Assembly (NCBI GenBank): GCA_040289575.1
Contig: PSLL01000019.1
Span: 17,354-41,126, forward strand
Direction of reading: 5' to 3'
Length of the DNA: 23,773 bases
Source of the DNA: Candidatus Dadabacteria bacterium
GTDB taxonomy: Bacteria > Desulfobacterota_D > UBA1144 > Nemesobacterales > CSP1-2
A program made the position numbers and the translations under genes. The notes beneath the pieces were generated by a model. It did not search any database. It was not told the DNA's origin and was given only the letters and a program-made list of their open reading frames with translations. Position 1 is the first letter of the stretch. Each line of letters opens with the position of its first letter. Positions 1,579-23,773 of this stretch are shown in pieces.

Positions 1579-2694
1579 ATGACAATCTCATTTGAAATAG
1601 ACAGAGAGCTAGAGGCTATAAGAGAGGAAGTTCACAGATTTGCAGAGAAGGGGATCCGTCCAAGTCTGAGGGATTTTGAAAAAGAGGGAGATGTTACCGA
1701 AGAATTGAGAAAAAGATTCTCAGAAATGGGCCTTAGCCTCATCGATTATTCTGAAGAATACGGCGGAATCGGTCTGACAGGCGCCATCGTTATATTTGAA
1801 GAACTTGCGTGGGGAGACATCGGAGCGGCGCTCTCTCTTATGAATGGACCCGGGCTTGCGGGATACGCCGTGATTGAGATTGGAGATGAGAGCCAAAAGG
1901 AGAAATATCTCTCCCCATTTTTAAATCCATCTAATTACCGCTTGAGATACGCCTTTTGCCTTATTGAAGATAGAGCCGATTTTACAGCGGAGGATATACA
2001 AACAACGGCAACCCCCATAGAAGAAGGCTTCTTAATATCTGGGAGGAAGTTCTGCGCGATAAATGGGGACAGGGCAGACCTTTACGTTGTATTCGCCAAG
2101 TTAAAACCAAGGAATGAGTCAAGGGCTTTTATTATAGATAAAGACACAGTCGGACTAAAATCTGGAAAGGTACATGAAAAACTCGGACTCATCTGCGTCC
2201 CGACATCAGATATAATCCTGGATGAATGCAAAGTCCCAAGGGAAAATATTCTAGACGGGGCTTCCGATTTTCAAAAAGCCCTCGAACGCATATTTATAAG
2301 GGAGAAAATCATATCGGCCGCGCTAGCAGTCGGATGCGCAAGAGCGGCCAGCGAATACGCATTCAAGTACGCATCTGAAAGGGTTGCTTTCGGCACTCCT
2401 ATATACCAACACCAGGGGCTTTCATTCATGATGGCCGAGATGGCAACAGAACTAGATGCGGCAAGATGGACTCTCTGGCAGGCGGCCTGGGCTTTTGACA
2501 GCGGAAAAGAAGAGGCCTCTGCCCTCGCAGAAAAAGCGATTCTCCAGGCAAATAAAATGGGCTCAAGGGTTACATCAGACGCTGTCCAAATCCTAGGGGG
2601 ACACGGATTCATCCAAGACCATCCTGTAGAGAAATGGATGAGGGATATTAAAACGCTCTCCGTTCTAATGGGGAAACCGACTCTAAAGAGATAG
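1579..2694 (+). CDS. Acyl-CoA dehydrogenase family protein (divergent)
   Basis: EEYGG, EELAWGD, ERVAFGTPIYQHQGLSFMMAEM and AVQILGGHGFIQDHPVEKWMRD motifs. Confidence 0.93.
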   Translation: MTISFEIDRELEAIREEVHRFAEKGIRPSLRDFEKEGDVTEELRKRFSEMGLSLIDYSEEYGGIGLTGAIVIFEELAWGDIGAALSLMNGPGLAGYAVIEIGDESQKEKYLSPFLNPSNYRLRYAFCLIEDRADFTAEDIQTTATPIEEGFLISGRKFCAINGDRADLYVVFAKLKPRNESRAFIIDKDTVGLKSGKVHEKLGLICVPTSDIILDECKVPRENILDGASDFQKALERIFIREKIISAALAVGCARAASEYAFKYASERVAFGTPIYQHQGLSFMMAEMATELDAARWTLWQAAWAFDSGKEEASALAEKAILQANKMGSRVTSDAVQILGGHGFIQDHPVEKWMRDIKTLSVLMGKPTLKR

Positions 2695-3105
2695 TAAAAG
2701 ACCGCCCGCTAAAACAAGCGCTATTCCCAAAATCTCATGCGGACGTACACCCTCCCTTAGAAAAATAATGGCCCAAAATAGGGTTATAACGGGATAGAGC
2801 GAGGTCAGCGGGGTTATAATAGATGCTCGTTCCTTTTCCATAGCCAGTATGAACATAACGGTTGCCAGGGTCCATGATACACCCATCAGTACACCTGATA
2901 TTATCAAACGCCAATCGGGAAATAAGAATGCGTCTTTTAAAACCCTTCTATAAAATAAGGCAAATAGAGAAGCGGTTATGGACGTTCCTATGAATTCAAA
3001 TATATAGACCTGGTAAGGCGAACCGTATCTGTTGGCTAACTTTGCCAAGAATGACCCGACTCCCCACCCCAGAATGACTAAAACGCTTAGAATTCTCCAG
3101 TCCAT
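2683..3105 (-). CDS. EamA/DMT family small multi-pass transporter
   Basis: About 5 hydrophobic segments with the EamA-type ASIITPLTSLYPVITLFWAIIFLREG motif. Start placed at ATG 3105 (MDWRIL); the ORF track extends to TTG 3150. Overlaps the convergent ACAD gene by 12 nt. Confidence 0.85.
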   Translation of the reverse strand: MDWRILSVLVILGWGVGSFLAKLANRYGSPYQVYIFEFIGTSITASLFALFYRRVLKDAFLFPDWRLIISGVLMGVSWTLATVMFILAMEKERASIITPLTSLYPVITLFWAIIFLREGVRPHEILGIALVLAGGLLLSL

Positions 3106-3173
3106 ATAGAGCGCTCCCAAGCAGAGTAAAAGGGACAGGTTAAGAATCAAGAGGCCATTGCAACAGATGATGA

Positions 3174-4259
3174 TTACTTTCTCATTCTCCTATAAGAAGA
3201 ACCCTTGATAATCTCTTCAATCCTTGATTCGAGTCTATCGTATCTCTCCCTTAGTTCATCTATTGCATTTTTAATCTCTTCATATTCGTCCAAAGAACTT
3301 GCGGTGTGCTGAGTCGAACTAATCCTCTTGGTTTTTACGGAGGAGTATCTACTCCTATTTATATTTAAGCTCAGTATGTCCGGTCTTGAAAAATGTCCCA
3401 CGGCGTCTATTACAGCCTTAGCTCTTATAATCATATCCATATCAATCTCGCCGTAGAGTATTGCCTCTTTATCGTATATGGGCCCGGCAATGTATTCTCC
3501 CCTCGGATTTATTATGCCGCTCCCGCCCGGAAAGTCCCATTTTGTGTATTTCTTCAGAGGGAAATTATCAGGAATCATGCTCTCATTAATATAACCGGAG
3601 GATACAATTACAAATACCTGCCCTTCAAATGCGTACTGCCTGCTTGCAAAATCCATTGTAGATTTAACAAATCCATGCCCCGCCCAGAGTCCCGCGTGTA
3701 TCTGCTCCCCCTCCATAAACATCGCATACTTAGCCAGAGTCATGTGATGCTCGTAGCAGAAAAACCCCCCTACCCTTCCGAGTGGGGTATCAAACACCCT
3801 CAGGTCTTCTCCGCCACCCATTCCCCATATGCACTTTTCGCTGTCAATTGACATGAGCTTCCTGTGCCTTCCCAAGATCTCGCCGTCTCTATCTATAAAA
3901 AGTATTGTATTGTATAGGGTGCCCCCGTCCCTTTCATTTACGCCAATGATTACAAAGGCTCCTGCTTTTCTTGCGGCTTCTCGGAGCTTATCCGTGTCTT
4001 CACTCGGAATCTCTATTGAGTTTTTATAAAGCTCTGTAAAGGCATCCAGAACGAGTCTCCTTTCAGGCCCAGCTCCCAGGTCTTTAGGCCAGTATGGGTA
4101 AGCAGGGATAAAAGCCTCCGGAAAGACTATTAAATCAGCCCTGTTTTCCCTAGCCTCTTCAATCAAACTACAGACCTTTCCTATAGTCTCATCTTTATTT
4201 AAGAAAACCGGAGCGGCCTGCACCGCAGCGGCTATAAACCTTTGGTATTCTCCTCCCAT
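3174..4259 (-). CDS. Nitrilase (carbon-nitrogen hydrolase family)
   Basis: Glu-Lys-Cys triad in FPEAFIPAYP, HRKL and CYEH; C-terminal DAVGHFSRPD. SD GGAGG upstream. Confidence 0.92.
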   Translation of the reverse strand: MGGEYQRFIAAAVQAAPVFLNKDETIGKVCSLIEEARENRADLIVFPEAFIPAYPYWPKDLGAGPERRLVLDAFTELYKNSIEIPSEDTDKLREAARKAGAFVIIGVNERDGGTLYNTILFIDRDGEILGRHRKLMSIDSEKCIWGMGGGEDLRVFDTPLGRVGGFFCYEHHMTLAKYAMFMEGEQIHAGLWAGHGFVKSTMDFASRQYAFEGQVFVIVSSGYINESMIPDNFPLKKYTKWDFPGGSGIINPRGEYIAGPIYDKEAILYGEIDMDMIIRAKAVIDAVGHFSRPDILSLNINRSRYSSVKTKRISSTQHTASSLDEYEEIKNAIDELRERYDRLESRIEEIIKGSSYRRMRK

Positions 4260-4378: not shown

Positions 4379-4915
4379 CTATTTATCCTGAACCTCTTTC
4401 TTAAGAACACCAATAAACGGGAGGCTCCTATACCTCTGATTGTAGTCCATCCCATATCCAACCACAAACTCATCGGGTATTTCAAATCCCAGATAATCAA
4501 TTCGGATATCCACAATCCGGCGCGCCTTTTTATCCAAAAGGGCGCATACGCGAATGTCAGAAGGTCTTCTCGCCTTTAGTGTCTTGAGTATGTAGTTAAG
4601 GGTCAATCCCGTATCAATAATATCCTCCACTAAGATTACATGCTTACCTTCTATGCTCTCATCTAAATCCTTCAGTATCCTTACCACCCCGGTCTGAGAC
4701 TGCCCCGAGTAGCTGGATATAGAGAGGAAATCAAGCGTAATCGGAATAGAGATATTCCTTATTAGGTCGCATAGAAACACAATAGCCCCTCTAAGGACGG
4801 CAACGATCACAAGGTCTTTTCCATTGTAATCACGTGATATCTCTTCTCCCAATTCTCTAATCCGCCTCTTTATTTGATCTTCTGTGATTAGAACCCTCTC
4901 TATACCCTCTTGCAT
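4379..4915 (-). CDS. hpt: Hypoxanthine phosphoribosyltransferase
   Basis: VLRGA, SY loop, PRPP-binding VEDIIDTGLTL, LLDK and FVVGYGMDYNQRYRSLP. SD GGAGAGAGG. Confidence 0.97.
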   Translation of the reverse strand: MQEGIERVLITEDQIKRRIRELGEEISRDYNGKDLVIVAVLRGAIVFLCDLIRNISIPITLDFLSISSYSGQSQTGVVRILKDLDESIEGKHVILVEDIIDTGLTLNYILKTLKARRPSDIRVCALLDKKARRIVDIRIDYLGFEIPDEFVVGYGMDYNQRYRSLPFIGVLKKEVQDK

Positions 4916-5039
4916 CTGCCTCTCTCCAAATAAGCCCAGGATTATTTTAATCTGCCTTATTGTATATGGCTATATAATTGATATGATCGATTAAAATTCA
5001 CTGAAAACAAACGACTTTTTCTCATCAATAAATCCCCCC

Positions 5040-5068
5040 TTGACATAAACTAGAGTTTGTGATATCAA
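5040..5068 (+). promoter_or_regulatory. Sigma70-type promoter for the putative ncRNA
   Basis: Perfect TTGACA (5040-5045), 17-nt spacer, then TG-n-TATCAA (-10 at 5063-5068). Predicted start about 5075-5076, coinciding with the 5' end of the long stem. No + strand gene follows. Confidence 0.65.
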
Positions 5069-5075
5069 TATTAAT

Positions 5076-5207
5076 GGGTCCCAAGAGGTTAAAGGCGGAT
5101 TTGAAAACCAAAACTTAGAGTACGGAAAGAAGAGACCGAAAGGTCAAATCAAGTAGGGAAGAAGGCAGGGGTTTTCAGAAAAGCCAAGTCACTTGGGGCC
5201 TTTTTTT
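5076..5207 (+). ncRNA. Putative rod-shaped non-coding RNA (~130 nt), family not recognised
   Basis: Nested helices: GGUCCCAAG 5077-5085/CUUGGGGCC 5192-5200; GGUU 5087-5090/AGUC 5187-5190; GGC 5094-5096/GCC 5183-5185; UUGAAAACC 5101-5109/GGUUUUCAG 5170-5178; CUU/AAG; UAC/GUA; apical GACC-GAAA-GGUC 5134-5145 (GNRA loop). U7 tract at 5201-5207 and an upstream promoter. Confidence 0.7.
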
Positions 5208-6097
5208 ATACCAAATCTCTCTAATAACCTCTTATAATCCTTTCCATAGAATATCCTTATGTTCACATCCGGATAAAGCTCTTTTAACATTCTAACCTTA
5301 CGATTCTTCTTTGTTACGAGGTTTTGCTTGAGCGTAGTAAGTTCAATATAAATGTCCAACTCAGGGAGATAAAAATCCGGTGTGAACTTTTCTATTGCAT
5401 TACCCTCATTATCCCACTTAATAGGAAAGCTCCTGGGCTCATACTCCCACTTAATTCGGTAAAAGTCCAAGACACTCGCAAAATCCCTTTCACTCGAATG
5501 GGCAAAAGAGGGTATTGATAAGTGCCTGCATTCCTCACCCGAATTAGGGGAGAAATCCGACTTGTCTAAACCGGCTTTCAATTTTTCAAGCGCCCTCCAT
5601 GTCAATCCGGCCTTTGCGGAAATGCCCTTTGTTTCAGCCGCTTTTAAAACTAAATCTACGGCGAAATCCGTATCCATATTGTCCACTTTGATCTGCAGGT
5701 CATATAAGTCGTTGCTCAACCTTTGCTCTCCATAAAGCCCCTTAATGAACCTTACGTAATTCCCCTCCTTTTTTAATTTACGGTATCCTTTTTGAGAGGC
5801 ACGGATTTTTATATGGAGAGTCCCAGGGAAATCACGAAAGAGAATCTCTCCTCCGAGATTAAAAATTATCACATTATCTTTGAGAGCTTGTTCAACTATT
5901 AGCCTTTTAATAAGTTCAGGTGGAAATTCTCCACGACCTATTCGATCGGCAATCTCCTCATTCAACGCCTGCGGGCCGTTTAACTTATCGATGATGAGAG
6001 TACTATCTACTAAAACAAAGCCCAATCTTTGGCAAATCTTTATAGCTACTTCGAGACCCAGACCGTCCAATTGTTCAGAGATAGTAATAATAGCCAT
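5189..6097 (-). CDS. Fusion of a degenerate cytidylate-kinase-like domain and a C-terminal PD-(D/E)xK-like domain
   Basis: N-terminal IITISEQLDGLG...LGFVLVD...LHIKI...LYDLQIKVD follows the cytidylate kinase-like family pattern. From aa 198, FAHSSE...WEYEP...FTPDFYLPELDIYIELTT resembles restriction-endonuclease-fold (T7 endonuclease I/TnsA-like) motifs. Confidence 0.8.
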   Translation of the reverse strand: MAIITISEQLDGLGLEVAIKICQRLGFVLVDSTLIIDKLNGPQALNEEIADRIGRGEFPPELIKRLIVEQALKDNVIIFNLGGEILFRDFPGTLHIKIRASQKGYRKLKKEGNYVRFIKGLYGEQRLSNDLYDLQIKVDNMDTDFAVDLVLKAAETKGISAKAGLTWRALEKLKAGLDKSDFSPNSGEECRHLSIPSFAHSSERDFASVLDFYRIKWEYEPRSFPIKWDNEGNAIEKFTPDFYLPELDIYIELTTLKQNLVTKKNRKVRMLKELYPDVNIRIFYGKDYKRLLERFGIKKGPK

Positions 6098-6130: not shown

Positions 6131-7000
6131 TCACCTGAAATGAACACCATACAGCCAATAGTAAATAATAACAAAATAGTAGAAGGCAGGAAATGCAAAA
6201 ATCAGGCTGTCGAATCTGTCGAGTATGCCGCCGTGGCCCGGCAGAATTCCTCCCGAATCCTTTACCCTGGCGCTTCTTTTAATCATAGACTCAACGAGGT
6301 CTCCGAGAACCCCAACAACACCAATTACAAACCCAAATATAAAAGCCCAGTAGTATTCAAGGGGAGATTTAAAAATAAGATTCGCCACCTCCGCCGTGAT
6401 AATTGAGGATATTATTCCGCCGATTGTTCCCTCAATAGTTTTGCCGGGGCTGATTCTAGGAATCAGTTTTCTCTTCCCCATCCATCTTCCCGCAAAATAT
6501 GCTCCGGTATCATTCAAAAAGACACATGAGACGACAAAGAAAATATAGAAAAATCCCGCGTCCTTTAGTCCCTGAGCGGCTTCGGCGTATGCCTTCACGT
6601 TTGAGTTATAACCTATGTTTCGGAGTAAAACCGCATGGCTCAGAAACCACCCCAGATAAACAATCTCAAAAAGCGTTGTACCCACCTCCATAAGAGAGCC
6701 TGATAGCTCCTGATTTCTTAGATGCAATATAAAAACAGCGATCATAGAAATTGTAAAAAAAACACCCAGATAGAAATATCCAAAGTAAGCGGCTACTGCC
6801 AGAATCAGACTCAGTATAAGTCCCAATCCTCCTGCCGAAGATACTCCTTTTGCCCACAAAAGCCTAGAAAACTCAATCCCTCCAATAAAAATAACCGCGA
6901 GAATAAAAACGAGAAATGGAACTCCACCTAGGTAAAAAATGAAATAGAGCGCCGGAATCCCAACAACTGCCGTAAGTACCCTCTGAGTCAAGTTGCTCAT
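6131..7000 (-). CDS. cdsA: Phosphatidate cytidylyltransferase
   Basis: Multi-pass membrane protein with NDTGAYFAG, ISPGKTIEG and GDLVESMIKRSARVKDSGGILPGHGGILDRFDS. Confidence 0.97.
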   Translation of the reverse strand: MSNLTQRVLTAVVGIPALYFIFYLGGVPFLVFILAVIFIGGIEFSRLLWAKGVSSAGGLGLILSLILAVAAYFGYFYLGVFFTISMIAVFILHLRNQELSGSLMEVGTTLFEIVYLGWFLSHAVLLRNIGYNSNVKAYAEAAQGLKDAGFFYIFFVVSCVFLNDTGAYFAGRWMGKRKLIPRISPGKTIEGTIGGIISSIITAEVANLIFKSPLEYYWAFIFGFVIGVVGVLGDLVESMIKRSARVKDSGGILPGHGGILDRFDSLIFAFPAFYYFVIIYYWLYGVHFR

Positions 7001-7054: not shown

Positions 7055-7837
7055 ATGAAAGAAATAAAACTCATATATAAACCGGATAATAACCCAATGA
7101 GTGTAGCTGTTTTTGTCTCCGGCTCAGGCACGAACCTCAGAGCACTCTATGAGGAACAAAAGAGACTGGAAGAATCGGGGAATAAAAGCTACGGAAAAAT
7201 CAGGTTGGTTTTTACAAACGCCCCAAACTGTATTGGGGCGGAGGTTGCCAAAGGGTTTAGAATCCCCGTGATTAGCCTAAGCTCAAAATCCTATTTCGAG
7301 ATTCTGCAAAAGGGTGCCGATGACAATGAAGCCAGGGATTACTATGACTCAGCCGCAATTGCCCTCATTGAGGAGATTTGTGTTCCGGACCTGATAGTTC
7401 TAGCGGGTTACAGGAGAAGGCTGGGCGGTCTGTTTATAAATAGATACAGAGACAGGATCATAAATCTCTATCCAGGGGACACCACAAAGGCGTATCTCGT
7501 TCGGGGCATTGATGCCTCTGTTCAAGCCATTAGAGCCGGAGAAAAGGAGATTAAATGCACTGTCTTTCTCGCGAGGGATGGGGAGCGCTTCGGTCCAGCG
7601 ATTATACAATCTCAGCCAATCTCTCTTGAAGGATTCAATGAGGAAAACGCAAAGGTCATGCAGGAGAAAATAAGGGAAAAAGGGGAATGGCAGATACTTC
7701 CCTTTGCAGTCCATCATCTTATATCAAAAGGACTAGTAGGAATAGACAGTGAAGACAATATATACATTGATGGCATAAAAATGCCCAAAGAGGGGTATCA
7801 GTTTAGTCCGGGTCTATATTACTCGAAAGCCAAATAG
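7055..7837 (+). CDS. Formyltransferase-fold protein, PurN-like, with altered catalytic residues
   Basis: VAVFVSGSGTNLRAL phosphate loop and PDLIVLAGY match GAR transformylase, but the NIHP and D-x-G motifs are replaced. Confidence 0.8.
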   Translation: MKEIKLIYKPDNNPMSVAVFVSGSGTNLRALYEEQKRLEESGNKSYGKIRLVFTNAPNCIGAEVAKGFRIPVISLSSKSYFEILQKGADDNEARDYYDSAAIALIEEICVPDLIVLAGYRRRLGGLFINRYRDRIINLYPGDTTKAYLVRGIDASVQAIRAGEKEIKCTVFLARDGERFGPAIIQSQPISLEGFNEENAKVMQEKIREKGEWQILPFAVHHLISKGLVGIDSEDNIYIDGIKMPKEGYQFSPGLYYSKAK

Positions 7838-7938: not shown

Positions 7939-8247
7939 ATGGGAAATCTAATTGAGGTTGCAAAAACGGGGGATATCGAGTTGGGGCAGAGTATATGTGT
8001 AGAGATTGAAGACAAGAGAATAGCCATTTTTAATATTGGAGGAAACTACTATGCAATTGATGATGCATGCACACACGTTGGCGGCCCTCTTTCAGAAGGG
8101 GAATGTGAAGAATACGTGGTTACATGCCCCTGGCATGGAGCACGGTTCAATATAAAAACAGGAGATGTCCTAAGCCCTCCTGCCAAAAGGCCTATAAAGA
8201 GCTACAGAGTACAGGTGGAGAGAGACTCAATAAAGGTAGAGATTTAA
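7939..8247 (+). CDS. Rieske [2Fe-2S] ferredoxin (dioxygenase ferredoxin/NirD-like)
   Basis: CTH...CPWHG Rieske ligands; 102 aa. Confidence 0.95.
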   Translation: MGNLIEVAKTGDIELGQSICVEIEDKRIAIFNIGGNYYAIDDACTHVGGPLSEGECEEYVVTCPWHGARFNIKTGDVLSPPAKRPIKSYRVQVERDSIKVEI

Positions 8248-22595: not shown

Positions 22596-23720
22596 ATGAG
22601 AAAGACACCACTTTATGACATCCATTCTTCACAAGGAGCCGTCTTTGGCAACTTCTCCGGTTGGCTAATGCCTAAAAGCTACGGGGCTCCATTGGAAGAA
22701 TACGCATGTGTGAGAAATAGAGTGGGCATCGCCGATCTATCACATCGCGGGAAGTTGCGTCTGAGCGGAAAGGAGCACATAAAATTTCTTCAAGGAATGG
22801 TGACAAACGATGTAAACAGGCTGAAAGAAGGAGAGGGTCTATACGCCGCCCTTCTCACACCAAAAGGAAGGATGATCTCGGATATGAGGTTATACCGCCA
22901 GGGCGAATCCCTACTTCTTGATTTAGAGCCGGGTCTTAATGAAAAGGTAAGAAACCTCTTGGCTAGATACAAATTATCATATAAGGCAAATATAGAAGAT
23001 GTAACTGAGAGTCTCTGTCTAATTTCGATTCATGGCCCAAATTCCGGAAGTCTCATTGAGAAAGTCCTGAACAGAGAGATTCCAGGGCTAAAAGAATATG
23101 AATTTCTGATAAAAGAGATAGACGGATCTCAAGTGATGATAGTAAGGGCAAACCGTACAGGAGAAGACGGCTACGATATATTCATCTCAACCGATGGGGT
23201 CAAAACAGTATGGGAATCCTTAGTCGGAAATGGAAGGGAGTTCGGATTAAGACCGGTCGGTCTCGATGCCATGGAGATTCTGCGAATCGAGGCTGCGATT
23301 CCCAGATATGGCATAGATATGGACGACAATACAATCCCGCTTGAGGCGGGGCTTGAGAATGCCATAAGCTATGAGAAGGGATGCTACGTGGGTCAGGAAG
23401 TGATTGCAAGGATTAAATGGAGGGGACATGTAAATTGGTGCCTTGCTGGATTTGAAATTGAAGGCGAGGGACTACCCGCTAGAGACGATAAGATTAGACA
23501 TGGTGAAAGGGAAATTGGGTATATAACGAGCAGCACTTTTTCCCCCATACTGAGAAAGATAATAGCCCTTGGGTACATAAGAAGGGAATTTATAGAGCCG
23601 GGAACAAGGGTCATAGTAAATATAGGCGGCGAGGACAGATCCACAGAGGTTGTAAAAAGGCCCTTTTACCAAAAGATGGTGGGCGGTACTGGATTTGAAC
23701 CAGTGACTTCCACCGTGTGA
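22596..23720 (+). CDS. Folate-binding YgfZ/GcvT-family protein
   Basis: GcvT-like KTPLY, DLSHRG, FLQGMVTND and LRIEAAIP, plus the YgfZ/Iba57 signature KGCYVGQE. Confidence 0.9.
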   Translation: MRKTPLYDIHSSQGAVFGNFSGWLMPKSYGAPLEEYACVRNRVGIADLSHRGKLRLSGKEHIKFLQGMVTNDVNRLKEGEGLYAALLTPKGRMISDMRLYRQGESLLLDLEPGLNEKVRNLLARYKLSYKANIEDVTESLCLISIHGPNSGSLIEKVLNREIPGLKEYEFLIKEIDGSQVMIVRANRTGEDGYDIFISTDGVKTVWESLVGNGREFGLRPVGLDAMEILRIEAAIPRYGIDMDDNTIPLEAGLENAISYEKGCYVGQEVIARIKWRGHVNWCLAGFEIEGEGLPARDDKIRHGEREIGYITSSTFSPILRKIIALGYIRREFIEPGTRVIVNIGGEDRSTEVVKRPFYQKMVGGTGFEPVTSTV

Positions 23721-23750
23721 GGATGGCACTCTACCGCTGAGTTAACGCCC
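23677..23750 (-). tRNA. tRNA-Val(CAC), acceptor stem 1 nt short on the 5' side
   Basis: GGGCGTTAACTCAGCGGTAGAGTGCCATCCTCACACGGTGGAAGTCACTGGTTCAAATCCAGTACCGCCCACCA: D arm ACTC/GAGT, anticodon stem CCATC/GGTGG with loop CT-CAC-AC, T loop TTCAAAT, encoded CCA. Confidence 0.9.
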
Positions 23751-23773
23751 CGTGTGTTGCGCCGTCTTCTCTA

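Follow-up and report, generated by a model that had tools for sequence, protein, structure and literature searches.

A predicted PD-(D/E)xK-fold domain fused to or encoded with hypoxanthine phosphoribosyltransferase in several bacterial phyla, and a structured small RNA that accompanies it in one clade

Hypoxanthine phosphoribosyltransferase (HPRT) is a central purine-salvage enzyme and a major target of guanosine tetra- and pentaphosphate, (p)ppGpp. PyrR and PurR are proteins with a phosphoribosyltransferase (PRTase) fold that double as RNA- or DNA-binding regulators. In Bacillus subtilis, HprT is reported to form a complex with TilS, which is encoded immediately ahead of hprT; this complex binds DNA and is an activator of ftsH (PMC8152036). 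Here, we describe a locus of related layout in a 23,773-nucleotide (nt) stretch of the Candidatus Dadabacteria contig PSLL01000019.1 (the window). An open reading frame (ORF) with the working name fus, 5189–6097 on the − strand, encodes a protein of 302 amino acids (aa), the C-terminal ~100 of which we call X. It is followed downstream on the same strand by hpt (178 aa). The 273-nt spacer between the two genes contains a putative small RNA (sRNA) element on the + strand.

The likeness to TilS–HprT lies in the gene order, from partner to hpt, in an upstream partner that overlaps or abuts, and in a complex that binds nucleic acid in B. subtilis (PMC8152036) and would do so here. The differences are that fus is unrelated to TilS and has no PP-loop domain, carrying a PF13189-like and a predicted PD-(D/E)xK domain instead; that X is often fused to HPRT; that an sRNA is present in one clade; and that binding of X to Hpt is predicted, weakly. 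No ftsH was found beside fus–hpt in ten loci scanned. PyrR and PurR combine a PRTase fold with nucleic-acid binding and nucleotide sensing, as is proposed for the present case, but there the PRTase fold itself binds nucleic acid, whereas the bona fide HGPRTase of the present locus is supplemented by a separate domain.

Each component of the locus falls in a known superfamily. According to the first-pass annotation of this DNA, no described system with this composition is known. None was found in family libraries or in a search of full-text literature, which yielded no description of X–HPRT coupling or of the RNA (subscription journals were outside its coverage). We regard the X–HPRT coupling and the sRNA family as new, and both would stand even if the mechanism proposed below were wrong.

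Coupling of X to HPRT

The full-length fus family comprised 5125 proteins at E ≤ 1e-3. For a first sample, one genome per species was scanned, which gave at least 596 loci, and the best 80 were used; their records were labelled Acidobacteriota, Methylomirabilota, Desulfobacterota/Dadabacteria, Bacillota, and Calditrichales. As tilS is to hprT, fus was directly upstream of hpt, on the same strand, in 79 of the 80 loci. The single miss (L024) was a contig that ends 164 bases past fus. The distance between the genes was measurable in 77 loci: it was −15 to +36 nt in 63, an operon arrangement, 219–374 nt in 12, and 98 and 159 nt in the other two. The genes flanking fus–hpt had nothing in common among 10 diverse loci. 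In genomes without fus, the neighbours of hpt included no tilS and likewise had nothing in common.

The X domain alone, used as a query, returned 1798 clusters at 50% identity. The architectures recognised with Pfam, for 56 of the 150 listed, were Cytidylate_kin2–X, GAF–X–PRTase, X–PRTase, MerR–X, and stand-alone X; a few odd ones are possible gene-calling artefacts. A second, independent sample consisted of the 80 metagenome loci nearest a stand-alone X, of at least 596. X and HPRT shared one stop-to-stop frame in 56 of these loci, hpt lay 3–47 nt downstream in 13, and a gap of 234–296 nt separated the two in five, so that HPRT was fused or downstream in 74 of 80. Four of the six loci with no hpt match were cut off within 400 nt, and two (L205 and L214) were real misses; where at least 400 nt of room was available downstream, HPRT was present in 71 of 73. 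All ten of the fused ORFs scanned carried the PRTase in the same ORF, four of them with an N-terminal GAF domain.

Coupling of X to HPRT, fused or directly upstream, is near-obligate across phyla, and the domains ahead of X (kinase-like, GAF, or MerR) are interchangeable. The first-pass annotation had noted that the domain occurs fused to or beside HPRT in other bacteria, and both samples bear this out; a lack of enrichment for hpt linkage, which would have spoken against the proposed module, was sought, and the linkage proved nearly universal. HPRT carries X or is encoded with it in many lineages, among them Chloroflexota, Acidobacteriota, Methylomirabilota, Dadabacteria/Desulfobacterota, Bacillota, and Calditrichota. 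Public names of the family proteins are ‘hypothetical’, ‘cytidylate kinase’ or ‘hypoxanthine phosphoribosyltransferase’. The last is the only name given by NCBI to 484-aa GAF–X–PRTase proteins from metagenome-assembled genomes (MAGs) of Chloroflexota/Dehalococcoidia, and X is hidden under it in public records.

The hpt gene of the window scored 220.5 bits against TIGR01203, the HGPRTase equivalog model (cut-off 150). Nothing else in the genome, which is 95% complete, exceeded the cut-off, the other two matches scoring 52 and 28 bits. TIGR01203 hpt genes were detected in 93 of 101 genomes of the order. Four of these genomes (G003, G009, G012, and G014) possess a second HGPRTase gene that also exceeds the cut-off and is located away from fus, in addition to the one next to it.

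Complex prediction with Hpt had been proposed as a check at the first pass. Folding Hpt with X (aa 190–302) yielded a score of 0.59 against 0.00 for the best control, graded as weak support, since most passes at ≤0.60 are wrong for guesses that were not likely to begin with. Here the guess was likely beforehand, because natural X–HPRT fusions exist, and these fusions argue for proximity of the two domains. Contact agreement between runs was at least 84%, and partner predicted local distance difference test (pLDDT) values were at least 74. The mark itself is passed by 116 of 157 solved complexes and two of 215 mismatched pairs.

Two of the loci carried unexpected labels. Those recorded as ‘Spirochaetia’ (L024) and ‘Ignavibacteriales’ (L025) encode fus at 84% and 78% identity, respectively, with the same cdsA–fus synteny as the window; L025 also has hpt, and L024 ends before it. 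Both look like mislabelled or misbinned MAGs. The nearest ESM Atlas clusters are unannotated and represented by proteins of 109–123 aa, most often labelled Actinomycetota, which look like stand-alone X.

Fold and conserved residues of the two fus domains

In the alignment of homologues, X was conserved far more strongly than the N-terminal domain. Its motifs FAHxSE, WxYEP, FTPDFYL, IELTT, KQ, KNRK, and YP were invariant or nearly so. No Pfam, NCBIfam, or PADLOC model covers X; Phage_endo_I (PF05367) matched aa 203–289 of fus with E 2.7e-4 and 21.0 bits, below the Pfam cut-off of 29.1. When X was folded alone (pLDDT 86), its top Foldseek matches were all PD-(D/E)xK nucleases, with T7 endonuclease I first, then Bax1, R2 RLE, NucS, and Vsr, albeit at weak E-values (6e-3 to 4e-2). 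The comparison of the X profile with T7 endonuclease I (3cae_A) gave an E-value of 5.1e-6. E203, D241, and E252 of X, all three invariant, aligned with E20, D55, and E65 of the T7 enzyme. The IELTT motif lay over T7 FVETK, which puts the invariant T254 at the position of K67; another invariant residue, K257, follows three residues past T254.

T7 endonuclease I is a structure-specific nuclease of junctions and mismatches, and X matches it in fold and in the order of motifs: a glutamate in helix 1, TPDF, and a glutamate in the next strand. It differs in the threonine at the Lys67 position and in its sub-threshold Pfam score, and it is a cellular domain with a conserved KNRK helix that is fused to sensor domains and HPRT. 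By the alignment and the structural model, X is a new family in the PD-(D/E)xK superfamily, with the acidic triad intact and the canonical lysine gone. Binding is favoured over cutting, because the canonical catalytic lysine is replaced by an invariant threonine; X may nevertheless use a relocated lysine. The first-pass annotation had proposed a nucleic-acid-binding or nuclease domain, defined by the motifs FAHxSE, WEYEP, FTPDFYLP, and ELTT. These motifs are all present in fus and are invariant or nearly so among homologues, and the PD-(D/E)xK fold and the acidic triad agree with the proposal, but the canonical catalytic lysine is missing.

The model of full-length fus reached a pLDDT of 75.7. 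Foldseek placed the N-terminal domain among P-loop nucleoside monophosphate (NMP) kinases, with 3fdi and 3hdt on top (E 8e-7 to 1e-6), and the profile search against 3fdi_A gave E 4.5e-8. Cytidylate_kin2 (PF13189) matched aa 3–101 with 27.9 bits, for a Pfam cut-off of 28; homologues at ~40% identity carry PF13189, and distant homologues score 109–125 bits. NCBIfam had no match for fus. A structure of the PF13189 family was solved in 2009 and, to our knowledge, its function has never been explained. The N-terminal domain of fus shares its fold and probably its sequence family with the PF13189 proteins 3fdi and 3hdt, but those stand alone, without X, and the fus copy has a borderline score and has lost the GSGG motif. 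The motif ISRxTGSGGRE, present in homologues at ~40% identity, reads ISEQLDGLG in Dadabacteria-type copies, including fus. The phosphate-loop motif GSGG(R)E is accordingly absent from fus, which has DGLGLE for the GSGGRE of distant homologues.

The structured RNA between fus and hpt

The first-pass annotation had placed the fusion gene directly upstream of hpt on the same strand and a putative RNA antisense to the last ~19 nt of the fusion gene, including its stop codon. The ORFs are as described, the overlap is 19 nt with the TGA at 5189–5191, and the RNA itself is borne out by its fold, its covarying base helix, and its recurrence with promoter and terminator (Table 1). Judged from the sequence, transcription would begin near 5076 and stop in the T-run. 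The computed fold of segment 5060–5212 is a single closed rod (−42.4 kcal/mol, z −4.04), and none of 200 shuffles folded as well. The TGA of fus falls within the 3′ strand of the closing helix. The sRNA promoter was not listed by the promoter scan, in which the last base of TATCAA, an A, was expected to be T. Because the RNA gene and its terminator stand between them, fus and hpt do not form an operon in this window.

Table 1. Features of the fus–hpt locus, with positions in the window
Feature	Position	Strand	Basis
fus ORF, PF13189-like domain and X domain	5189..6097	−	ORF listing, Pfam, homologues
N-terminal P-loop NMP-kinase-like domain, aa 1–178, degenerate GSGG loop	5564..6097	−	Foldseek, profile, alignment
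X domain, aa 196–296, predicted PD-(D/E)xK fold nearest T7 endonuclease I	5210..5512	−	model, Foldseek, profile
structured sRNA, ~132 nt, convergent with fus	5076..5207	+	fold, covariation, no Rfam match
sRNA promoter (predicted)	5040..5068	+	TTGACA 5040–5045, 17-nt spacer with TG, TATCAA 5063–5068
base helix 5′ strand: P1, mismatch A 5086, P1b	5076..5090	+	fold, covariation
base helix 3′ strand with antisense of fus stop, mismatch A 5191	5187..5200	+	fold, covariation
U-run after base helix, forming terminator with it	5201..5207	+	sequence, terminator scan
fus/sRNA 3′–3′ overlap, 19 nt	5189..5207	.	coordinates
hpt	4379..4915	−	TIGR01203
hpt weak candidate promoter, divergent from sRNA promoter	4944..4972	−	9/12 consensus positions; pattern match only

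When relatives were searched by BLAST and with a motif assembled by hand, the RNA element was found between fus and hpt and also elsewhere in the genomes. All copies examined were preceded by TTGACA-17-TAnAAT and had a U-run past the closing helix; their lengths were 119–171 nt. RNAalifold, applied to 18 copies, recovered the closing helix P1, a 4-pair extension (P1b), and an inner helix (P2), with compensatory changes in nine of 22 predicted pairs. Across 21 sequences from all groups, the base helix comprised 15 pairs, 96.5% paired, with changes on both sides in eight of the 15. Its covariation score was reached by none of 500 shuffles, and every slid register was far worse. The layout was ~11 pairs, a purine–A mismatch (A–A in 15 of 21 sequences), and then a helix of four pairs that includes a fixed G–U (one position G–U in 19 of 21). 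The + strand is the functional strand, because the many G–U pairs would be A–C on the other one.

The position of the sRNA between fus and hpt is common to Dadabacteria and Methylomirabilota and is seen in part of the Acidobacteriota. Outside the window's own phylum, loci with long fus–hpt gaps (L029–L033, L035, L042, L044, and the metagenome loci L201, L213, and L221) have an RNA of 182–260 nt in the same place and orientation. The base motif is unchanged there and reads YCCRAG, purine, GGUC ... GGUC, A, CUYGGR, U-run; an inner AAGUACCGA-like motif also recurs across phyla. The fus stop codon is the antisense of UCA in the base motif, both in the window and in several other lineages. Calculated by hand from coordinates, the overlap between fus and the sRNA was 7–25 nt in six of seven loci from other phyla; in several Dadabacteria it is limited to the U-run. 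Otherwise unrelated C-terminal tails of fus end in PK because the stop codon is the antisense of the UCA: the sRNA constrains the protein tail and not vice versa.

The covariance model of the RNA (R1) scored 128.8 bits at the window's sRNA. Among the 101 genomes of the order, it matched 13, X matched the same 13, and neither was found without the other. The RNA is syntenic in relatives and in other phyla, a point on which the original idea could have failed. Copy numbers ranged from one to four per genome, with four in G002 (an assembly of 410 contigs with 3% contamination) and two in five genomes. The unlinked copies have unrelated neighbours, encoding an M16 peptidase, VanZ, a luciferase-like, an HDAC-like, and a cNMP-binding protein, and PDDEXK_1. 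One of them (L005:1875–2945, genome G010) lies between genes for a cNMP-binding protein and a PDDEXK_1 nuclease-family protein, a placement that is probably due to chance, because the other unlinked copies have unrelated neighbours. In an IQ-TREE (quick) phylogeny of 79 fus proteins, the 13 RNA-bearing rows fell in one 25-row clade with a support of 98, interleaved with RNA-less rows, and at least four changes are needed. In G013, one of the four genomes of family f1 without RNA or X, hpt starts at the contig edge, and the absence of both may be an assembly gap.

Known RNA classes were compared with the element. At gathering thresholds, Rfam yielded nothing but a tRNA in the whole window, only chance-level matches were obtained in 4850–5300 at E ≤ 10, and no family matched the RNA in eight loci from other phyla. 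The sRNA resembles 6S and Y RNAs in being a closed rod with paired 5′ and 3′ ends and a strong promoter, sometimes with paralogues, but it differs from them in having no Rfam match. For 6S RNA (RF00013), there was no match in 4850–5300 at E ≤ 10 and none in the organism's own genome, and genome G043 has the fus-linked RNA plus a true 6S RNA (58.9 bits) elsewhere. For bacterial Y RNA, there was no Ro/TROVE match in the 95%-complete genome and no Rfam Y-RNA match. The genome's copy of the signal recognition particle (SRP) RNA lies elsewhere. The shortest members of the sRNA family, of 119–124 nt, have a short terminal hairpin or none and no long terminal arm. A 13-codon ORF at 5074–5115 (+), with an ATG at 5074, is unlikely to be coding; other copies of the sRNA have no ATG.

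Several observations were made around individual copies. In an Acidobacteria locus (L035:5237–5338), a long near-perfect palindrome stands just upstream of the sRNA promoter; it was seen as identical spurious microRNA matches on both strands. At L183:2806–3062, the same fus–hpt gap holds, in the same orientation, a promoter and a different stem-closed element whose ends are unlike the family motif and which may be a diverged member or a replacement. Two Methylomirabilota-type loci have a tRNA gene with a long variable arm after hpt (L042:5795–5878 and L044:2028–2111).

Possible function and surroundings of the locus

The explanation that we propose is a complex of sensor, X, and HPRT with a nucleic-acid ligand, which in this clade would be the sRNA. 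The first-pass annotation had inferred a module in which a nucleotide-binding domain gates a nucleic-acid-binding or nuclease domain linked to purine salvage; the analysis supports this interpretation, with the gating itself still putative, and none of the three outcomes named there as refuting it was observed. X would dock on HPRT, and the enzyme would thereby gain a nucleic-acid-binding face. The variable N-terminal domain, whether kinase-like, GAF, or MerR, would sense a small molecule, probably a nucleotide. The complex would then be a regulator of the trigger-enzyme type, in which purine, phosphoribosyl pyrophosphate (PRPP), or nucleotide status is coupled to the binding, and possibly the cutting, of structured nucleic acid. 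In the RNA-bearing clade, the ligand would be the conserved base helix of the sRNA, and the sRNA may work in trans as a scaffold, decoy, or regulator, as its variable centre and extra copies suggest. A functional tie between sRNA and X, most simply with the sRNA as ligand of the X-domain protein, is favoured on three grounds: the sequence of the helix motif is conserved across three phyla, the position of the sRNA is fixed while the flanks differ, and the sRNA is restricted to carriers of X. As a whole, this layered explanation is tentative, and we would give it a little less than an even chance of being right.

A more specific form can be envisaged, in which HPRT, X, and the sRNA reside in one ribonucleoprotein (RNP) particle, a ‘trigger enzyme’. 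Occupancy by purine, PRPP, or (p)ppGpp would act jointly with the N-terminal sensor to decide whether X holds a family of structured sRNAs or releases them (or nicks them at the conserved purine–A mismatch), and the variable sRNA centres would act on other targets. We consider this form distinctly unlikely.

Several points weigh against a sensor–X–HPRT complex with the sRNA as ligand. The co-occurrence of the RNA and X is partly trivial: RNA carriers fall in two families only (10 of 14 genomes in f1 and two of two in f6), the linked RNA adjoins fus, and one deletion removes both. Recent duplication of the linked copy may also account for the extra ones. The RNA was found in none of a 54-row Bryobacterales-type clade of fus, and 63 of 77 X–hpt operons have no RNA. 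Because most X–hpt operons are without it, the RNA is not needed for the core function; it is an accessory of one clade and no part of the core X–HPRT function. Trans-pairing between the sRNA and hpt 5′ regions averaged −29.8 kcal/mol for cognate, −28.7 for non-cognate, and −29.1 for shuffled pairs in a test that is weak, as duplexfold permits huge loops; the 5′ regions of fus behaved similarly, with no signal and no clue to a target. Ligand sensing by the kinase-like domain is doubtful in this window, where the domain lacks the GSGG loop. The three invariant acidic residues of X would fit an active enzyme as well as a binder, and the predicted Hpt–X complex amounts to weak support.

The alternatives differ in which of these components they leave out. 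The link could be one of proteins only, with fus/X serving HPRT as an allosteric or assembly subunit, without any binding of nucleic acid, and with the sRNA as a separate cis-antisense regulator of fus, acting through convergent transcription, a shared bidirectional terminator, and the complementary 3′ untranslated region of fus. The fusions and tight operons show that coupling needs no RNA, X has no catalytic lysine, loci of different phyla share the 3′–3′ overlap that places the fus stop codon within the helix, and besides the sRNA element there is no compact terminator hairpin for fus on the − strand. An antisense mechanism, however, needs neither a helix that is sequence-conserved in three phyla, with a fixed mismatch and G–U, nor extra unlinked copies. 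Moreover, the overlap is reduced to the U-run in several Dadabacteria, and X retains the acidic triad and the conserved basic KNRK helix that are typical of nucleic-acid binders. We judge this alternative unlikely, albeit a serious contender. Less credible is a metabolic pair, in which the kinase-like domain would phosphorylate a product or substrate of HPRT, X would be a nuclease that supplies salvage from nucleic acids, and the RNA would be incidental. The NMP-kinase fold, the intact acidic triad, and the status of hpt as the housekeeping copy agree with it. Against these stand the absence of a Walker lysine from PF13189, the loop of which is degenerate further in fus, and the fact that the N-terminal domain is swapped for GAF or MerR, or absent, while X and HPRT stay; a sensor therefore fits, and a pathway enzyme does not. 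We regard a metabolic pair as improbable.

The same low standing is given to the view that the sRNA serves a general housekeeping purpose, in the manner of 6S RNA, Y RNA, or a protein sponge, and owes its place beside fus to inherited synteny without a functional tie. Its strong promoter, its one to four copies per genome, the unrelated contexts of unlinked copies, and the lack of an Rfam 6S match in the organism's own genome would suit such a role, but a bona fide 6S RNA coexists with the linked RNA in G043, members can be very short and devoid of a long terminal arm, and the own genome has no Ro/TROVE gene and encodes its SRP RNA elsewhere. In addition, the 88 genomes of the order without X yielded no match to the RNA, and it keeps the same position in three phyla despite differing flanks. 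Finally, the locus could be a toxin–antitoxin or anti-phage module, with X as a nuclease toxin, the sRNA as a type I-like (3′ overlap) or type III-like antitoxin, and the PRTase as effector. The convergent 3′ overlap presumably resembles that of type I pairs, and PADLOC produced weak matches (HEAT_CxxC_PD-DEXK at 1.3e-4 for fus; PsyrT/ShosT PRTase at 3e-3 to 1e-2 for Hpt), but these represent generic domain similarity only. The 220-bit hpt is the genome's sole match above the curated cut-off, and the fus–hpt pair is stable, single-copy, and found among varied housekeeping genes rather than in defence islands. X and HPRT usually form one polypeptide or a tight operon without the RNA; fus is a soluble two-domain protein of 302 aa and no small membrane toxin; and no tandem repeat was evident in the sRNA sequence by eye, no repeat finder having been run. 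A toxin–antitoxin or anti-phage role therefore seems highly improbable.

If the sensor–X–HPRT complex with a nucleic-acid ligand is real, it would constitute a new bacterial coupling of nucleotide salvage to nucleic-acid recognition and would provide a function for PF13189. The sRNA between the partner gene and hpt would point to a level of purine-salvage control that has not been described, and in the RNP form the state of purine salvage would be read out directly by way of RNA, for which no counterpart is described. The X–HPRT coupling and the sRNA family are both directly testable.

The neighbours of fus–hpt in the window are housekeeping genes, for a cdsA-like CTP_transf_1 protein, a formyl transferase, a CN hydrolase, an EamA transporter, and a Rieske protein; the neighbouring genes lie at 6131–7000 (−), 7055–7837 (+), 3174–4259 (−), 2683–3150 (−), and 7939–8247 (+). 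The cdsA gene upstream of fus is retained within the genus only. The sole Rfam match above the gathering score in the window is a tRNA gene at 23680–23751 (−), with 54.8 bits.

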